Origin: Escherichia phage vB-EcoP-XT18
Direction: 5' to 3' (one strand)
Sequence record: OR757434.1
Length of the DNA: 64,000 bases
The notes below the pieces were generated by a model, which ran no database searches, was not told the origin of the DNA, and saw only the letters and a program-made list of their open reading frames with translations. The position numbers and the translations under genes are program-made. Of the stretch, positions 3,068 through 52,140 are shown in pieces. Position 1 is the first letter of the stretch, and every line of letters begins with the position of its first letter.

Positions 3068-3418
3068 ATGCAAAGCACTTTAAGTGATAATCTAGGATTT
3101 GTTATCTTCTCTGCTCTGGTGTTCTTTGGTGGTATGAAGTTTAATGAGTACAGAACAGACAGTAACAATCTGGATAAAGAAAAGCATCAACAAGAGTTAG
3201 AGATTGAAAGAAGTAAGGCAGCTGATGAAGTTGCTCAGAGAGTTCTTACCGGTTTATCCAACTGGAAGAAGAACACGGAAACCGTTTATAAAGAGATGCA
3301 TTATGAGAAAACTAAACCAGTTTTTTATAATGTCTGCGCTAGTGATGACTACATCCGCATGTTCAACGAGCGACAGCAGCAGGCAATCGATGCCCTTACC
3401 AACAAACCTAAAAGCTGA
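3068..3418 (+). CDS. putative i-spanin (Rz-like): N-terminal TM helix plus charged coiled-coil
   Basis: Start chosen at internal ATG with GGAG RBS (track ORF 3044..3418); hydrophobic LGFVIFSALVFFGG then EKHQQELEIERSKAADEVAQ. Confidence 0.35.
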   Translation: MQSTLSDNLGFVIFSALVFFGGMKFNEYRTDSNNLDKEKHQQELEIERSKAADEVAQRVLTGLSNWKKNTETVYKEMHYEKTKPVFYNVCASDDYIRMFNERQQQAIDALTNKPKS

Positions 3419-23825: not shown

Positions 23826-25898
23826 TCATATCAATCCATAGATGATGTTGTGAAGAACACACCCCCCAACTGCGCCACCTATGTTGAAATTAATTTCAGC
23901 CTTACTGGACCCTGGAGGAACTGAATCAATAACAGCATAGAAACTGAACGAGTTGTTACTAGGTATGTAATATCCAATAGACTCAGAAACTGCATTACCT
24001 GCTGAATCTAGAAACCTAATAGATGCTAGTGTAGTGGTTGTATTCTTAGCCCAAAAACCAAACTGAAAGTATCTTCCGGGATGACACTCACTCACTGATT
24101 GGGTGAAGTTTGCCGAGCTAGTCGTATCTGGGACACCAAAAGAGAATGATGTGTTAAACATAGGAGACGAACTCGGAACATCATTGGGTTGAGAAACTGA
24201 CACTACCCCTGATCCTGTTTGACTAAATGTCCAGTTAGATGTATTTAAGAATTGCCCGGAACCATTACTAAGACTATTAATGTAAGGGCTTACAATAGAT
24301 CCAAGATCCCACCTACTTAAGACAAAACCAGCTCTAGGGTAACATCCGTTAGACACAACTCTCTTACTATCACCGCCGATGAGTTGGCGAGTAGGGAAAC
24401 CAGTGGCTAGAGTATTGTTGCCATACAGAGGTAGAGAGCAGTTTGTCAGAGAAACAAAACCATCCCCATTACTTACTATAGGGACAGAACTAAAACCTAC
24501 AGGGACCAAAATTGTCGAATCTTTTATGCTCAATCTCGAACTACCATTAACAGAAAAAGAAACAAAAGACTGATCCGGTTGATACTCAATGTTCCCATTA
24601 GAAAAAACAACTGTGGCGTTGTCTGTCATTATAATGGTTGGGTCAAAATATCCAGACTTTTTCCCAGCAGGAAGTGAACACGTATCAAAGATGAATTGTC
24701 CATTCTCAAAAGTAAAAGGTCCTCCGTTATCCACGCACCAGCAGTGATTGAACTTTATAACTTCTCCAGAGTTCGCTCTTGATTTAAAAACAACCGTGTC
24801 CGTAAAGCTTCTACTTATTGCACATTTGTCAAAAAGGATCCTATATGAATTATCAAGGAATTCAAGACCAGCTGTTGAGATAAAACCACAATTTTCTATC
24901 CGAACTTCCGACACCTCCCCACTATCAGTCCCTCCAATTACAACCTTTCTGGCACCTAGACCAACAAAGGACACTCCTGATATCTTAGCTGTTGAAGAAA
25001 TCGAATCTCTAAGCCCATAATCTGTGTTTGAATTTATAATCTTCAAGAAATATTGACCTGTTGCTCCAGCCCCTTCCTGAAGCTTACAATTATTATAGCC
25101 TATCAAGGCTCCTTTAGAAACGTCAATAGCTATCTCAGATAATACGGATCCAGAAGTTGGAACTATACAATCGTAACCAGAGGAGTTCACTTTGTTGATA
25201 TAAACAGCAATATCCCCGCTGCCAGTGTAGCCTGCATCAAACACAGAAGCTTCTCCAGAGAATAGCAACCTCTTCCATTTTACAGAAACTCCACTGAAAA
25301 CCACCACCCCATCAGCTGTTTCTGAATTGTCTATTGCTACAAACACACCCCCTCCCATATTAGCCCCTTCGACATAAGATCTTACAAAGACTTTGTCACC
25401 TACAGAAGCTCCCTCTAAGGTCTGAAGTTGTTCAATAGAGGGGAGATCTCCAATAAGATTAAACCCTGTAGGCAGGCCTAGTTCTTGAGAGACCACATTA
25501 GATACCTGACCTAATGCCACTGCTTCGTCACTCTCAACGGCGTTTGGTATACGTATAGGTTGAGAAAAAGTTACCTTATTTGTCATCGAAGTAATATCTG
25601 AGTTAGCCCCACTCTTAGCCGCAACCAGTGCGAGCCTTGCCGTGTCCGGAGAAGAGGCTCCTGTACCACCTTTCGAAATAGGAACAATATTTTCTACAGA
25701 AACATCACCTAATCCTAAATTAGATCTAGCAATAGTAGTATTAATTGCTCCTGTACCACCTTTCGAAATAGGAACAATATTTTCTACAGAAACATCACCT
25801 AATCCTAAATTAGATCTAGCAATAGTAGTATTAATTGCTCCTGTACCACCTTTCGAAATAGGAACAGGCTCCTGTACCACCTTTCGAAATAGGAACAA
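23826..25898 (-). CDS. tail fibre, C-terminal portion (begins inside frameshifted repeat array)
   Basis: N-terminus is 30-aa repeats ISKGGTGAINTTIARSNLGLGDVSVENIVP; TTG start without RBS lies inside the repeat. Confidence 0.55.
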   Translation of the reverse strand: MFLFRKVVQEPVPISKGGTGAINTTIARSNLGLGDVSVENIVPISKGGTGAINTTIARSNLGLGDVSVENIVPISKGGTGASSPDTARLALVAAKSGANSDITSMTNKVTFSQPIRIPNAVESDEAVALGQVSNVVSQELGLPTGFNLIGDLPSIEQLQTLEGASVGDKVFVRSYVEGANMGGGVFVAIDNSETADGVVVFSGVSVKWKRLLFSGEASVFDAGYTGSGDIAVYINKVNSSGYDCIVPTSGSVLSEIAIDVSKGALIGYNNCKLQEGAGATGQYFLKIINSNTDYGLRDSISSTAKISGVSFVGLGARKVVIGGTDSGEVSEVRIENCGFISTAGLEFLDNSYRILFDKCAISRSFTDTVVFKSRANSGEVIKFNHCWCVDNGGPFTFENGQFIFDTCSLPAGKKSGYFDPTIIMTDNATVVFSNGNIEYQPDQSFVSFSVNGSSRLSIKDSTILVPVGFSSVPIVSNGDGFVSLTNCSLPLYGNNTLATGFPTRQLIGGDSKRVVSNGCYPRAGFVLSRWDLGSIVSPYINSLSNGSGQFLNTSNWTFSQTGSGVVSVSQPNDVPSSSPMFNTSFSFGVPDTTSSANFTQSVSECHPGRYFQFGFWAKNTTTTLASIRFLDSAGNAVSESIGYYIPSNNSFSFYAVIDSVPPGSSKAEINFNIGGAVGGCVLHNIIYGLI

Positions 25899-40602: not shown

Positions 40603-40630
40603 TTGACAACTGGAAAGCCTAACCTATAAT
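40603..40630 (+). promoter_or_regulatory. near-consensus sigma70 promoter (TTGACA-16 nt-TATAAT)
   Basis: tatTTGACAactggaaagcctaaccTATAATgagc in ORF-poor region. Confidence 0.5.
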
Positions 40631-41055: not shown

Positions 41056-41084
41056 TTGACAGCAAAAACATCATGGTCCATAAT
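41056..41084 (+). promoter_or_regulatory. sigma70-like promoter (TTGACA-17 nt-CATAAT)
   Basis: gcggTTGACAgcaaaaacatcatggtcCATAATgagc; same ATAATGAGC downstream context as the first promoter. Confidence 0.45.
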
Positions 41085-42008
41085 GAGCGTACTCACTAGG
41101 CAAATCACCGCTTCAGTGAAAAGCGAAACAACGGCTTACAGTTGCGTAGCGTGAGAAAGCACGCTGACAGATTTACCGCTCTTTAATAATTTAAACGTCC
41201 CCATATATCGGTTAAATATGCTGGAAGATAATAACCATCGGAAAGCATACCAGATAAAACGGCGTAAAACTCCCTAAACCATCAGGGTAAACAGTTTTAC
41301 AATCCCTTAACTGGAAACGTCACCACTGATAAGCGGATTCATTGAGTACACGCAACGGTTTAAGCTAATCGCCCACGGTTAAGGGTAGCGGCGGCCATCG
41401 CTAACACGGTGCTACAGTGAAATAAGTTAATCAGGGCAGACAAGTCCGACGAAATAACGCTCAATTGAGAGCGGCGGGGGATGGTTAAAGGGTAGCAAAT
41501 TGCTATTTAACAATAAGGTTTAGTGTGAACGTTTACGATGCGAACGGCTTGAGATTCGTCTTATGATGAAAGTACATAGTCGGTTTATGTAGTAAACTCG
41601 CCGAAAGATATAAAACGCCGGAATAATAGGCGGTTAGTGACTCTTTCGCAATAGTATCCCATAGTGGGCGATGACTAGCGAAAGAGAGCTGATATAAAAG
41701 GATAGGCGGGAGCGAAAGCAAAGTAAACGATATTGCCGACGGTTACATCAATGTAACTAATTAGAGTCGGACGCACTGCCTTATTGTGGTGATTGATCAT
41801 CGCTATCAGGTCGGCTTGGTTTATAGCGACTAATTAAAGATACCAGTTGAAACACCACGGATAAGGGGGCGGCAAGGTTAACTCCTGACAAGACCGCCCC
41901 CCTTATCAATAATTACTTAACAATGAGTGATTATCGATAAGTCAATGGCGACTTAAAAAGCTCATAGAGAGCGGGGCATAGTGCCCTTACAATTGAAAGG
42001 TGAATATC

Positions 42009-42908: not shown

Positions 42909-42932
42909 GTAAGACAATCTAAATAAACATAA

Positions 42933-42965
42933 GGCGCTATCTTAACGGGTAGCGCCTTTTCTTTT
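42933..42965 (+). terminator. rho-independent terminator
   Basis: ggcgcta ... tagcgcc hairpin then TTTTCTTTT. Confidence 0.65.
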
Positions 42966-44343: not shown

Positions 44344-44369
44344 GCCCCGGCTACGGCTGGGGCTTTTTT
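44344..44369 (+). terminator. rho-independent terminator
   Basis: gccccggc-tacg-gctggggc then TTTTTT. Confidence 0.6.
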
Positions 44370-45304: not shown

Positions 45305-45527
45305 TATTAAGCCTGATCATACTACACTTCGTTTAAATAACATGAGGCCGGGTGCTCTGTTTCATTTTAAAGGTTCTCTCTATATCAGAACCGGATTAAC
45401 AACTGACTATCACGTCAATTGTGTTAACGTGGTTTCTGGAGAGCTTATTGTTATCAGCAAAAACGAAGTCTGCCAAGTGCGCAATGATCTCCACATAACT
45501 AACATCGAGGCTAAAGATGAAGATTGA
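45270..45527 (+). CDS. small protein, GDVF-motif paralogue family
   Basis: LRLNNMRPGALFHFKG motif. Confidence 0.35.
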   Translation: MLNSRRLTVKVNIKPDHTTLRLNNMRPGALFHFKGSLYIRTGLTTDYHVNCVNVVSGELIVISKNEVCQVRNDLHITNIEAKDED

Positions 45528-45774
45528 TCTTGAATTAAAAGACCCAGACCTTACAGTGGGTGATTTAAAGCTTGGAGATGTGTTCCAAGTTAAAGCTACA
45601 CGCGTCGATCATTATTTGGTTGTTAGTTTATTCACTCCACACGTAACCGAGTCGAACAGGAAAGATTCTGGAACAGTTGTGCTTGGTTTAAGAACTAATC
45701 AGGTTATGAAGCTCAATTCAAAACTTCCTGTAATCCTTATCCCAGATGCAGTAATTACTAATAAAGGTAAGTGA
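45517..45774 (+). CDS. small protein, GDVF-motif paralogue family
   Basis: DLKLGDVFQVK motif. Confidence 0.4.
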   Translation: MKIDLELKDPDLTVGDLKLGDVFQVKATRVDHYLVVSLFTPHVTESNRKDSGTVVLGLRTNQVMKLNSKLPVILIPDAVITNKGK

Positions 45775-45993
45775 ATGGAAATTAAAGTGGTTGATTATCC
45801 TAAATATGCAAATGCAGAAGACGTTAAGGGTGGTGATGTTTTCTCTTACGATAAACGTTTCTGGCTGATGCTAGAAGATAAAACCCTTGATGGTTTGTGT
45901 AAGGCTGCTAACTTGAGCAGTGGTTATGTTGAAGTCTTCGGTCTATCAACCACTATTATGCCACGTCCTGATCTGTGTTTATCCCAAAAGTAA
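45775..45993 (+). CDS. small protein, GDVF-motif paralogue family
   Basis: VKGGDVFSYDKRFWLMLEDK; close to 48786..49007. Confidence 0.4.
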   Translation: MEIKVVDYPKYANAEDVKGGDVFSYDKRFWLMLEDKTLDGLCKAANLSSGYVEVFGLSTTIMPRPDLCLSQK

Positions 45994-46351
45994 CACCGAC
46001 TTATAGCCCTTGTGTTTACCAGAGGGCTATGTGAGGGTGTTCCTCATTAACTTATTAATTCAGGCATATGCCACACCGCTAGGGAGAGCTTGCTCAAACA
46101 TCCGGTGCTAGACTAAAACCTGTTAATTTTCGAAAGACTTTCCGGTATGTAGGGGTACGTATTGGTTTGGGATTCAGGAGACTTCCTAGGGGTAGGGAGT
46201 CTTCACCAGTTGGAATAAGAGATAGCTCTAGAACCTGAACTCTTAGGCAGAGAAGGTCGGCAATGAGTACGCGGTCAGGATTAGTCTACTGACTAGGGCT
46301 ATCCCTTATATCAACTGGCAATAATGCCTCCACTAACAAAGAGAGATAGGT

Positions 46352-46492
46352 ATGAAAGTATCAACCAAACGTATGAACCGCCCTGAGCGTATGGATGCAG
46401 TAGCTAACGGTGCTCTGAAACTGGAAGGCTTCTGGGTTCATGCAATGTCGGCTATTCGTAACAAGCAAGGTAATTGGACATATAACAGTTAA
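46352..46492 (+). CDS. small basic protein (46 aa)
   Basis: ATG with GAGAGATAGG RBS after long intergenic region; followed by terminator. Confidence 0.3.
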   Translation: MKVSTKRMNRPERMDAVANGALKLEGFWVHAMSAIRNKQGNWTYNS

Positions 46493-46574: not shown

Positions 46575-46751
46575 ATGTCTAAGCAAACAATCAAGAATAC
46601 ACAAGCTGGTTACTCTTATGTTAACTCTCCTTGCTGTGGTGCTCGTGTTAATCTGGTTAAGGAAGAGGTTCGTATCGTTCAGCGTGGCGCTACTGTTGTT
46701 CGTTCATGCTGTGTCTGTGGTAATGATATTTTTATCAAAGGTAAAGTATGA
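46575..46751 (+). CDS. small zinc-ribbon-like protein (CC ... CC)
   Basis: SPCCGARV ... SCCVCGND motif; AAGAGGAAG RBS. Confidence 0.35.
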   Translation: MSKQTIKNTQAGYSYVNSPCCGARVNLVKEEVRIVQRGATVVRSCCVCGNDIFIKGKV

Positions 46752-46972
46752 TTATCGTCCACTCTGAACCTAAAGATAATACTTTTGGTAGTCTACGTAA
46801 TGGTGATGTATTCTCTCTAGAAATAGACGGGGATACAAAACCTCCTTTATACATGAAGGTTATGCACAGACATGCTATCTGTATAAAGAATCCTGAAACA
46901 AGATTCACCTTTGATAGAACTTGCCCTGTCAAATACTATCAAGCTACCCTAAATGTTAGGAGAGTAGGATGA
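46748..46972 (+). CDS. small protein, GDVF-motif paralogue family
   Basis: LRNGDVFSLEIDG. Confidence 0.4.
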   Translation: MIIVHSEPKDNTFGSLRNGDVFSLEIDGDTKPPLYMKVMHRHAICIKNPETRFTFDRTCPVKYYQATLNVRRVG

Positions 46973-47220
46973 AAAACTTCCAAGCTGCACCAATAACTAA
47001 AGCGATCGCAGTTAGTGATGTGATGATGACTGTTCCTCTGAACACTCGTTACATTGCAATTGACAAGATGGGTTATGTATGGGCTTGGAAGATTAAGCCT
47101 AGCTATAACGCATTGTTTGACGAGTTTGTTTGTACTGGTACTTACAGTCCTACATTCTTGGGTTTATTTGGAGAGTTTGAAGGTCAGTATAAAATCATTA
47201 CTCTCCCTGCTTGTGTTTGA
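46969..47220 (+). CDS. small protein, paralogue of 47228..47461
   Basis: RYIAIDKMGYVWAWKIKP vs RYLATDSNGEVYGFTHKP. Confidence 0.35.
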   Translation: MKNFQAAPITKAIAVSDVMMTVPLNTRYIAIDKMGYVWAWKIKPSYNALFDEFVCTGTYSPTFLGLFGEFEGQYKIITLPACV

Positions 47221-48182: not shown

Positions 48183-48257
48183 GTCCCTATAGTTAAAAGG
48201 ATATAACAGATTTCTTCTAAAAATCCATTCTAGGTTCGAGTCCTAGTGGGGACGCCA
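48183..48257 (+). tRNA. tRNA-Arg (anticodon UCU), CCA encoded
   Basis: Hand-folded cloverleaf: acceptor GTCCCTA/TGGGGAC (one G-U), U8, D-stem GTTA/TAAC, anticodon stem GATTT/AAATC with loop CTTCTAA (U33, TCT), T-arm CTAGG-TTCGAGT-CCTAG, discriminator G, CCA. Confidence 0.75.
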
Positions 48258-49190: not shown

Positions 49191-49979
49191 GAGGTTTTAT
49201 GACTGAAGAATTTTTAAAGTGGTTTGGAAATACCTTCAAAGAATATCTATTCTCTCCAGAAGACTTTGAAGAGCTGAAAACCTACACTTGGTTGGCTTGG
49301 AGAGATAGCCGACGAGAGATGAATAAGTAATATCGTGAAGGATTCTTACGAGAGTCCTTTGAGATAGGACTTCAGATCTCCTATCAAACTAACATTCACG
49401 TAACTAGCCCATAAGGGCGTTACCCTTTAATAACCCAGCCCACTAAGGGGGCGGGAGTTTAGTGCTGGATTTAGCATAACGCTTATTCCTACAAAGGCAT
49501 CCGATTGTTAGATCTTACATGCAATATTAATTAATAGGATAAGGGAGGATTCGTCCCCTCCCCCTATTTATAAATTATCAGGAGGGTGCATTAGCTGATT
49601 AGCTGTAGAAGGGAGGCTGATATCTACAGCGTGGCCCAGAGTTAGTGTACTCTCCTGATGAGTAGATACCTCATCACGGTAAGCTGTGGAATAATCTTTA
49701 CAGAAGTTACTTAAAGTAGCCTGTACGGCCCTCAGCAAAGAGTCCGGACGATATCTGAGTGACTTTAAAAACAGATGGAGCCAGGTGGAATCCCTGGCAA
49801 TCAATTACAGGTATAGCTTATGAGGCTAATTAATGCAGAGCCTATGGTAAAGCAGTCGCCCGTGGTCAAATGACCGTATGCCCATTGGGTGCATCCCTTT
49901 GGTGATGGCTAGGGAGTCCGAGCGTAGGTCCGAACCCTACACCTGTAACCAAATCAAACAATATCTAATTGGAGGATGT

Positions 49980-51276: not shown

Positions 51277-51510
51277 ATGTCTAAAGTAAGCGCAATTGAT
51301 GCAATCCGTCAACCGTTCCAGTTCCAATCCAAATCAACCCAAACCTTCAGCGAACCTAAGCAAATTCGCTTGGGTGGCACAGAGAAGACTGTGTTCGATC
51401 TGGCTAAAAATAAAAGTGTTACCGTAGTTGATGGTGGCACTCTGGTTAACGTTTCCCATCGTATCCGCACTGGCAAAACTGCCAAAGATCGTGCTAAGAA
51501 AGGTGAGTAA
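51277..51510 (+). CDS. hypothetical small basic protein
   Basis: ORF with RBS. Confidence 0.3.
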   Translation: MSKVSAIDAIRQPFQFQSKSTQTFSEPKQIRLGGTEKTVFDLAKNKSVTVVDGGTLVNVSHRIRTGKTAKDRAKKGE

Positions 51511-51752
51511 TGAAAATAGGGAAACCAGCTAAGGATGCTCTATCGAAGATTAGTGATGTCTCTATTGGGGAAGTTTTCTCAGCAGAGCACTTTTCAAGTT
51601 ACTACATGAAAATCCCTGACACTAAAGTAGAGGGTTACATCATTCCTGCCAACGCAGTTAACCTGAACACAGGCCATCTGTCTGCATTCAAACCTGATTC
51701 ACAGGTTACTGAGATCAAGGATGCCTATCTCGCCTTTGGTGGGGATAAGTAG
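51510..51752 (+). CDS. small protein, GDVF-motif paralogue family
   Basis: VSIGEVFSAEHF. Confidence 0.35.
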   Translation: MKIGKPAKDALSKISDVSIGEVFSAEHFSSYYMKIPDTKVEGYIIPANAVNLNTGHLSAFKPDSQVTEIKDAYLAFGGDK

Positions 51753-52140
51753 AGTGACATTTATAGCCTTCCCTCCGGAGGGCTATGTGAGTCATTCTGA
51801 CTCAACTAACCTAATCTTAATATATTTCCCGTATGGGGCCGATGCTAGGGCGAGGAATATTCCTCAAACATCCGTCGGATAGATATTTTAAGAGCAGGTT
51901 ATCCACAGATATTGGGTAATATCTTTTTGGATTTAAAGCTTGGCTCTTTTCGGAGAGTCCTTTTTTAAATTCAACGAGAGGAAATATGTCTAAATTAGAT
52001 TTAAAACTGCTAGCAGCAGCGGTAGTGATTTGTGCACTAGCACTGGTAACGCAGAGAACATCTGGATTTATTCAGTGTTTCTTTTCTGGGCAATCCACTT
52101 ATCAGTGGGTTATTGACGAGTGTAAACAACAGGAGTAAGT

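Follow-up and report, generated by a model that had tools for sequence, protein, structure and literature searches.

With high confidence, we hold that two intergenic spacers of Escherichia phage vB-EcoP-XT18 each contain a structured RNA domain of about 125 nucleotides, that the two are paralogues in a family without earlier description, and that they are transcribed within a sigma-70-driven early operon. The spacers lie near 46 kb (copy 1) and 52 kb (copy 2) of a 64,000-nucleotide stretch of the phage DNA (sequence record OR757434.1), which was analysed as a whole and is called the window; positions are counted from its first letter. The reading that we prefer, with a probability of about 0.4, is that the element is a cis-acting punctuation module of the polycistronic early RNA, which would affect its read-through, processing or stability.

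The repeat rests on three blocks, each of which was found exactly and at only two sites in the window: GAGGGCTATGTGAG at 46022 and 51778 (no mismatches), GCTAGGGNGAG at 46078 and 51844, and CTCAAACATCCG at 46093 and 51863. All are on the + strand, in identical order and with similar spacing in both copies. A single pair of shared 14-mers is unremarkable in 64 kb, where approximately 7.6 are expected; the joint expectation for three colinear blocks is approximately 5e-6. Gapped alignment of the copies recovered the common order. This confirms an earlier note on this DNA, which had described two spacers with ordered common elements beginning with a hairpin (H1 below). The pair had escaped a repeat finder owing to insertions and deletions between the copies. 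Two details of the earlier note needed correction. It had placed each copy upstream of a small gene, which is right for copy 1 (46352-46492), but the gene after copy 2 lies at 51986-52138 and does not start at 51976. The element that it delimited is real, but its 5′ edge lies earlier, at AGTAAC (45989) in copy 1 and AGTGAC (51753) in copy 2, where it overlaps, or lies next to, the stop codon of the upstream open reading frame (ORF).

That the similarity is due to chance, or to small unannotated ORFs, has a practically negligible probability. Mechanically called ORFs (46010-46111 and 51721-51882) do overlap the copies, and a few GenBank records annotate coding sequences (CDSs) there as hypothetical proteins. 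Against this stand the joint expectation of approximately 5e-6 and the conservation of the element in 98 and 102 phage records, or about 100 per copy. In addition, substitutions in the stems are compensatory, and the insertions and deletions between the copies are not multiples of three, so that the conserved product is RNA rather than protein; copy 2 itself is 132 nucleotides long in the window and 130 in phage phiEco32.

Conservation of a fold was examined with covariance models. The only input to the first model (R1) was nine copy-2 sequences, from Kuravirus and Suseptimavirus, which avoids circularity when other members are scored. It matched copy 1 of the window with 52.6 bits (E 5.8e-10) and copy 2 with 163.7 bits, and recovered every copy-1 sequence (50-67 bits, E 1e-9 to 1e-13) and every Moazamivirus element (93-99 bits, E 1e-19 to 1e-20). 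Its + strand matches in the window were the two copies only, and the reverse strand gave no more than 23 bits, compared with 164. A broader model (R2), used on a search space of 219 kb, gave 97.8 bits for copy 1 and 140.4 bits for copy 2. The fold comprises the following parts, all on the + strand.

45989-46113, + strand: shared core of copy 1, matched by R1 and R2
45989-45994, + strand: copy 1 AGUAAC, which includes the stop codon of the upstream ORF (45991-45993)
45992-45997 / 46036-46041, + strand: copy 1 alternative helix P0 (AACACC / GGUGUU), which encloses H1 and excludes H2 (RNAalifold)
46002-46011 / 46022-46031, + strand: copy 1 hairpin H1
46033-46036 / 46042-46045, + strand: copy 1 hairpin H2
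46063-46072, + strand: copy 1 hairpin H3
46074-46078 / 46103-46107, + strand: copy 1 helix P4
46079-46085 / 46096-46102, + strand: copy 1 internal loop (CUAGGGA / AAACAUC)
46086-46095, + strand: copy 1 helix P5
51753-51884, + strand: shared core of copy 2, from the R1 and R2 matches and pair counts
51753-51758, + strand: copy 2 AGUGAC, directly after the upstream stop codon (51750-51752)
51754-51758 / 51791-51795, + strand: copy 2 alternative helix P0
51762-51772 / 51777-51787, + strand: copy 2 hairpin H1
51789-51794 / 51798-51803, + strand: copy 2 hairpin H2
51828-51837, + strand: copy 2 hairpin H3
51839-51844 / 51873-51878, + strand: copy 2 helix P4
51845-51851 / 51866-51872, + strand: copy 2 internal loop (CUAGGGC / AAACAUC)
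51852-51856 / 51861-51865, + strand: copy 2 helix P5

In a first alignment of both copies with the element of phage 7-11, five helices had changed sequence with pairing kept, and in the R1-based alignment 97.2% of pair cells were paired. The final alignment of 22 sequences had 96.3% of pair cells paired, compared with 80.2% after shuffling and at most 44% when the partners were slid. Two-sided changes were present in 20 of the 30 pairs, which bears out the covariation across related phages that the earlier note had proposed as a check. Compensatory changes occurred in every helix, and none of 500 shuffles reached the observed value on any of five measures. Approximately 10% of the pair cells are G-U, and the opposite strand would pair in only 86%; since these wobbles would be A-C mismatches on the other strand, the functional strand is the + strand. 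The folding z-score of copy 2 was -5.0 on the + strand, compared with -3.8 on the - strand. Comparison of the aligned members firmly establishes that the fold, and not a hexamer pattern, is under selection.

The 5′ part of the element offers two mutually exclusive pairings, P0 and H2, around the strong hairpin H1, and compensatory changes keep pairing in both. P0 forms when the segment at the stop codon pairs with the 5′ arm of H2. The predicted energy gap between them is approximately 1-4 kcal/mol in most members. In copy 1 all six P0 pairs are kept in all seven copy-1 sequences, one of them varying between C-G, U-G and U-A. H1 is followed by GUGAG with no U tract, and so lacks this feature of an intrinsic terminator. 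An A/U-rich linker separates the 5′ part from H3, a hairpin of 3 base pairs (bp) with an RUAU loop, and from the remainder of the core. Here P4 closes a nearly invariant 7x7 internal loop, CUAGGG(A/C) opposite (G/A)AACAUC, which is capped by P5, so that freely covarying helices enclose approximately 13 unpaired bases that are nearly invariant. The pair flanking P5 was A-G in 12 sequences, C-A in six and A-A in two, and never C-G (Fisher p = 7e-4). It switches inside three separate lineages, and this pattern in the alignment indicates a specific non-Watson-Crick pair. The kink-turn, the loop-E/sarcin-ricin motif, the 11-nucleotide receptor and the CsrA site were compared by eye only, and none fits. 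A search of both spacers against Rfam release 15, at gathering scores and at E values up to 10, gave no match to the core; chance-level matches to sR15, TarB and SdsR lay outside it. ARAGORN and Rfam detected no tRNA or tmRNA at the elements, the only one in the window being a tRNA-Arg at 48183-48257. No description of the element was found in the searchable literature, a search that did not extend to the primary phiEco32 papers (PMC3275717, PMC2587145).

Salmonella phages of the 7-11 group, which belong to a different family (Grimontviridae), carry a counterpart of copy 2 with 70-73% identity; this single element is of the copy-2 type, and no second copy was found in 45 kb each of 7-11 and pSal-SNUABM-01. 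Further sequences came from a pattern scan of metagenome and genome collections, among them a divergent copy in the phage-like contig JBOFGJ010000684.1 (L047), which scored 48.6 bits with R1 and 93 bits with R2. Its H1 and P4 stems differ entirely in sequence, but it keeps H3, the base of P5 and the two strands of the loop. Over the 8 kb compared, L047 has one protein in common with 7-11 (an Srd-like anti-sigma factor) and none with the window. Its relatives are the Citrovirus phages CVT22, Pecta and Klyazma (Zobellviridae), of which CVT22 and Klyazma are annotated with a sigma factor of their own, as is phiEco32. R2 found weak homologues in noncoding gaps of the Citrovirus early region, with 32 bits in Klyazma (E 3e-5) and 29 bits in CVT22 (E 2e-4), where part of the loop is altered to CUAGGAA and CUACG, respectively. 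The element is kept in Escherichia phages, Salmonella phages and more distant phages with almost no early proteins in common. Pattern matches in IMG/VR outside Kuravirus and Moazamivirus (L005-L007, L015, L016, L018, L050) and in Serpens (L048) were discarded as chance matches in coding regions with no model score.

Outside the shared core the two types have different extensions, again on the + strand.

51807-51901, + strand: copy-2 long-range helix P6, enclosing H3 and P4/P5 (RNAalifold, 13 copy-2-type sequences)
51807-51812 / 51896-51901, + strand: outer pairing of P6 (UAACCU / AGGUUA), near-invariant
51816-51820 / 51888-51892, + strand: inner pairing of P6 (CUUAA / UUAAG)
51899-51907, + strand: candidate DnaA box TTATCCACA, a perfect 9-mer (GGTTATCCACAG with its flanks), between the core and the terminator
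51942-51966, + strand: intrinsic terminator GGCUCUUUUCGGAGAGUCC followed by U6 (terminator scan), at the end of the copy-2-type element
46142-46165, + strand: copy-1 hairpin A, with a GGGG tetraloop at 46152-46155 (UA-GGGG-UA)
46177-46204, + strand: copy-1 hairpin B, with a GGGG tetraloop at 46189-46192 and compensatory changes in the lower stem (RNAalifold)

The six outer pairs of P6 have a single exception, one U-U in one sequence (pair 71-162), and the five inner pairs show some two-sided changes between Kuravirus and Moazamivirus. P6 is also present in the minimum free energy structure predicted from copy 2 by itself, as an imperfect duplex of approximately 17 bp, and the support for this predicted helix is moderate. 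The terminator starts 44 nucleotides and ends 20 nucleotides before the next ORF (51986). It is found at a fixed distance, approximately 60 nucleotides 3′ of the module, in all 13 copy-2-type elements, and is annotated as a terminator in the records of 7-11 and SU7. Its stem varies only at the second pair (G-U in 10, A-U in three) and at the pair next to the loop, which itself varies. The DnaA box is one of only two exact matches to TTATCCACA in the window; GGTTATCCACA is invariant in all copy-2-type sequences, including those of four Salmonella phages, and the flanks of the box match those of the high-affinity boxes R1 and R4 of oriC and of the pBR322 origin box. A further DnaA box with one mismatch lies at 51740-51748 on the - strand. 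As to the copy-1 type, TAGGGGTA occurs in the window only at 46150 and 46187, in the two capped hairpins. In Klyazma (L053, approximately 47130-47160, - strand) the element is followed by a hairpin whose loop is GUAGGGGUA, and related AGGGGU and UAGGUG loops follow it in L047 (approximately 3160-3230).

The region from 45 to 53 kb of the window is 90-97% identical to Kuravirus (phiEco32-like) coliphages, and both spacers are 100% identical to those of phage vB-EcoP-XT32. Synteny with phiEco32 and WFI101126 places early genes on the + strand here. Copy 1 is flanked by homologues of phi32_113 and phi32_112, also by synteny; copy 2 lies directly 5′ of the phi32_90 homologue, at a position corresponding to the phi32_91/90 boundary. 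The only strong sigma-70 promoters are at 40603-40630 (12/12), 41056-41084 (11/12) and 41885-41913 (10/12), all + strand, at distances of 5 kb from copy 1 and 11 kb from copy 2, and a promoter scan found no strong one between 43 and 55 kb. These three promoters are clustered in approximately 1.6 kb of noncoding DNA. They are the counterpart of the promoters in the gene 120/121 spacer of phage SU10, which has three sigma-70 promoters there and one upstream of CDS125 (PMC4281155); phiEco32, like SU10, has three in one spacer and another upstream of CDS125 (PMC4281155). The stretch holding both copies belongs to the class that corresponds to SU10 CDS 69-125, which are early genes (PMC4281155). 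For 7-11 the validated early promoters number only two and lie at the right genome end (PMC8948821, section 3.5). As early promoters are confined to one end, the genes 3′ of the copy-2 terminator must be reached by read-through. Terminator-like hairpins are approximately twice as frequent between 43 and 55 kb as expected from shuffling.

This arrangement also bears on the suggestion of the earlier note that the spacers represent a conserved RNA structure or a promoter class, possibly of middle promoters. The structural half of that suggestion is strongly supported by a fold kept in distant phages, while the promoter half fails. phiEco32's gp36-dependent middle and late promoters consist of a single conserved element, tAATGTAtA, 6-8 nucleotides 5′ of the transcript start (PMC8948821). 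The window contains it exactly at 2125, 2197, 12590 and 28187 only, all away from the elements, no match within one mismatch falls inside the elements, and both copies lie inside the early operon. A sigma-70 promoter for the small downstream genes could be considered, given that each copy is upstream of a small ORF, that copy 2 holds a weak sigma-70-like site, CTGACT-18-TATATT (9/12), at 51797-51826 (+ strand), and that Suseptimavirus keeps TTTAAT at the same spacing. Copy 1 and 7-11 do not retain the weak site, though, a scan of the region gave fewer sites than shuffled sequence, and the pattern of conservation is that of base pairing and not of hexamers. Nor is there a conserved promoter 5′ of H1, because the DNA there is coding sequence that differs between phages. 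A promoter function of either kind is thus highly improbable, and the promoter, chance and coding readings are essentially excluded. If the site at 51797-51826 were active, it would give an RNA of approximately 130 nucleotides with H3, P4/P5, P6 and the terminator.

The genes that follow the element offer no common target. Downstream ORFs are unrelated between phage groups, except for phi32_112 and its homologue in 7-11. The phi32_112 homologue after copy 1 encodes 46 amino acids with a basic N-terminus; it has no relative among the ORFs that follow the element in L047, Klyazma and CVT22. Control of a conserved downstream gene, or binding of an N-like partner encoded there, is therefore not favoured, and with no gene-specific association a role at the level of the transcript fits better than control of one gene. 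The cis-acting punctuation reading is preferred because of this missing link to any gene, the position at cistron boundaries, the switch at the stop codon and, in one subtype, the fixed coupling to a terminator.

We infer each step of the following mechanism from the observed repeat, fold, strand, phyletic spread and genomic context. A ribosome ending translation of the upstream ORF would cover P0, and the P0/H2 switch would report that event. Through H1 and H2 the 3′ end of the upstream message would be protected. The internal loop, with its invariant sequence, may be recognized by an endonuclease, by RNA polymerase during elongation or by a factor associated with it, and the bound partner would determine the fate of the transcript: continuation, cleavage or termination. 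In the copy-2 type the module appears hard-wired to a terminator, with the DnaA box in between, at what would be the border of variable small early genes and conserved promoterless downstream genes. At that border it would set or regulate read-through, like lambda nutR/tR1. In the copy-1 type the core is joined to GGGG-capped hairpins that lead towards the next ORF.

Several points weigh against this reading. Both copies are far from the promoters (5 and 11 kb) and follow strong terminators at 42931-42958 and 44344-44363, which belong to the same operon, lie between the promoters and copy 1 and have no structured element before them; this position argues against a device of the nut or put kind that has to load ahead of the first terminator. 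Expression of the downstream genes would also follow if the internal terminators were simply leaky, with no antitermination. For the copy-2 terminator, no anti-terminator pairing was found that is both convincing and conserved; the candidates are low-complexity matches of 4-6 nucleotides that vary between genera. P4 and P5 together are shorter than the approximately two helical turns typical of RNase III substrates, and five to seven helices with 13 near-invariant loop bases are more elaborate than known processing or antitermination signals.

Such signals, HK022 put by its description, can be compared with the element. The lambda nut site consists of a short boxA and a 15-nucleotide boxB hairpin, and put of approximately 70 nucleotides with two hairpins, located promoter-proximally before the first terminator. 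Like nut and put, the element is present in two diverged structured copies in gene orientation, in an early operon transcribed by host polymerase, with one copy just 5′ of a terminator that has to be passed for later genes to be expressed; as in put, its 5′ part consists of two adjacent hairpins (H1 and H2). It differs from both in having five to seven helices and an invariant 7x7 internal loop. Reading of the elements revealed no lambda boxA (CGCUCUUA-like) with a boxB hairpin (5-bp stem, purine-rich pentaloop), the sole GCUCUU being the 5′ arm of the terminator stem, and no N-like partner was identified. The T7 RNase III signals R0.3 to R1.3 are single irregular hairpins of approximately 50-60 nucleotides and about two helical turns. 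They resemble the element as repeated hairpins with internal loops between early cistrons of an RNA made by host polymerase, with a protective hairpin at the upstream 3′ end. In the element, by contrast, P4 and P5 provide only 9-11 bp around a large loop, and H1-H3, P0 and P6 are extra. In logic the element thus appears to resemble nut/put and the T7 sites, with the defining features of neither. The PeSL cassettes of T4-type phages, reportedly described by Arbiol et al. in 2010, are said to combine an early promoter with stem-loop repeats flanking shuffled ORFs. The elements are similar to these in being repeated between genes of a hyper-variable early region, with edges at points of gene exchange; unlike a promoter with a simple stem-loop, they have no promoter and show strong selection for a complex fold with invariant loops.

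The copy-2 type extends from a stop codon to a terminator as a unit of approximately 215 nucleotides kept in three genera, which would also suit a stable small RNA acting in trans. The core would be freed by cleavage in the linker or in the P6 stalk, and in copy 2 by termination at 51966, and the free RNA would bind a host or phage protein, or pair with a target through its invariant loop. P6 flanks the core in the manner of a processing stalk, the loops are invariant with variable stems, no particular neighbouring gene is linked to the element, and the tRNA-Arg implies that the early transcript is processed. This reading is rather unlikely, as the upstream DNA is variable coding sequence with no conserved promoter, and copy-1-type elements do not include a terminator. 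When the phage's own transcripts were scanned for sites complementary to the loop, only one good site came up, which was judged to be chance. This site, GGATGTTACCCTAG at 24334-24347 (- strand, 14 nucleotides), complements both loop strands with a one-base gap; it was rejected as the target of a guide RNA because the O78-type tailspike gene in which it lies occurs only in XT32 and XT73. The tRNA-Arg(UCU) gene (48183-48257, + strand) itself lies in the early operon between copies 1 and 2, so the early transcript would be processed by host RNases anyway.

Invariant loops set in covarying helices are typical of ribozyme cores and aptamers, and the part from H3 through P4 and the loop to P5 might be a new catalytic or ligand-binding RNA: a self-cleaving ribozyme, which would cut the early transcript between genes, or a riboswitch aptamer controlling the downstream terminator or ORF. 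The near-invariant unpaired bases, the covarying helices and the covarying non-canonical pair are in keeping with this. Like phage ribozymes, the element occurs in several copies per genome, in gene orientation, in unrelated phages and with no link to a gene, and the copy-2 type has the geometry of an aptamer followed by a terminator. We nevertheless regard it as quite unlikely: Rfam contains no matching ribozyme or riboswitch at E values up to 10, no conserved alternative pairing joins the core to the terminator, and the Citrovirus homologues change part of the loop. The downstream genes have no common function, which argues against a metabolite sensor; with unrelated genes and no conserved anti-terminator pairing the element does not look like a riboswitch. 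A bolder proposal, also unlikely, is that the core defines a new functional RNA class, either a ribozyme punctuating early transcripts or a put-like antiterminator of new architecture that binds and reprograms the RNA polymerase of the host. Its carriers would be phages that use the host core polymerase with a sigma factor of their own (Gordonclarkvirinae, Grimontviridae and Citrovirus-like Zobellviridae).

The edges of the element coincide with changes in gene content. Upstream ORFs differ between phages, and the swap junction is exactly at the AGTAAC edge. WFI101126 has an extra gene of 101 amino acids (gp128) before copy 1 (L001 1505-1810, compared with 45994 of the window), and phi32_91 of phiEco32 is replaced before copy 2 of the window by an unrelated ORF of 80 amino acids (L003 1576-1791, compared with 51510-51752). 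To judge from these alignments, the elements may serve as cassette junctions. The copy-2 sequences of Suseptimavirus (L019 1381-1414, L013 2583-2616, L022 1375-1408) carry an H1 of the copy-1 type, 91% identical over 34 nucleotides to copy 1 of the window; the apical part of the Kuravirus copy-2 H1 differs. The resemblance points to an exchange of sequence between the copies of one genome. Together with the perfect and invariant DnaA box of the copy-2 type, the junctions and the exchange would accord with a function of the DNA itself, as recombination joints of cassettes or as a site controlled by replication or DnaA, the fold being secondary. Compensatory changes and G-U pairs in five helices, however, reflect selection on a single-stranded + strand fold, and the DnaA box, which copy-1-type elements, L047 and Klyazma lack, cannot explain the shared core. 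We consider a primary function at this level very unlikely; a role in cassette exchange or through DnaA may be added to the RNA role, but does not explain the covariation. An origin of replication was rejected, since the cumulative GC skew does not turn at 46 or 52 kb and the one DnaA box is accompanied only by the one-mismatch site at 51740.

The transcription programme of phiEco32-like phages has so far been described by promoters, the phage sigma factor and gp79 only, and how an early operon of 25-45 kb driven from one end passes its internal terminators has not been addressed before. The element would be a conserved RNA-level control point in this programme and is a well-supported orphan RNA motif. 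A DnaA box next to an invariant terminator in one subtype hints that the replication status of the host may be tied to a switch of downstream genes. In practice, such phages are used in therapy and engineering, for which the elements mark natural cassette junctions.

The earlier note had also named a third relative at 49890-49915, for which the covariance model found nothing even with filters off. Its 9-mers are at chance level: TAGGGAGTC (49910-49918) matches 46193-46201, in the downstream hairpin of copy 1 outside the core, GCTAGGGAG (49908-49916) matches the core at 46078-46086, and we estimate that approximately 0.9 isolated 9-mer matches are expected by chance between spacers of this size. 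For the UAGGG of the third spacer, the predicted partner is CCCUA, within a different hairpin. One weak match of R2 lies at the other, upstream end of this spacer.

49326-49440, + strand: uncertain degenerate third copy, 5′ half only (R2 22.9 bits, E 0.0065 in 219 kb)

It has AGUAAU at the upstream stop codon, two hairpins, AACUAAC and a CCC-AUAA-GGG hairpin, and is without the conserved loop and P5; the match was not recovered in five other Kuravirus and Suseptimavirus genomes. A whole-window Rfam scan at gathering thresholds only reported no match in 49331-49979 (+ strand), an ORF-free spacer of approximately 650 nucleotides that is the longest in the early operon and has many predicted hairpins.

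The ORFs 5′ of the two copies (45775-45993 and 51510-51752, + strand) are distant paralogues of the phrog_6570/12612 type, of approximately 75 amino acids. This small-protein family seems to be present in several copies in the early region, including 45517-45774 and 46748-46972, as judged from the DNA motif TGGTGATGT(T/A)TTCTCT at 45831, 46801 and 51566. The ORFs 5′ of the elements in 7-11 and SU7 belong to the same family.

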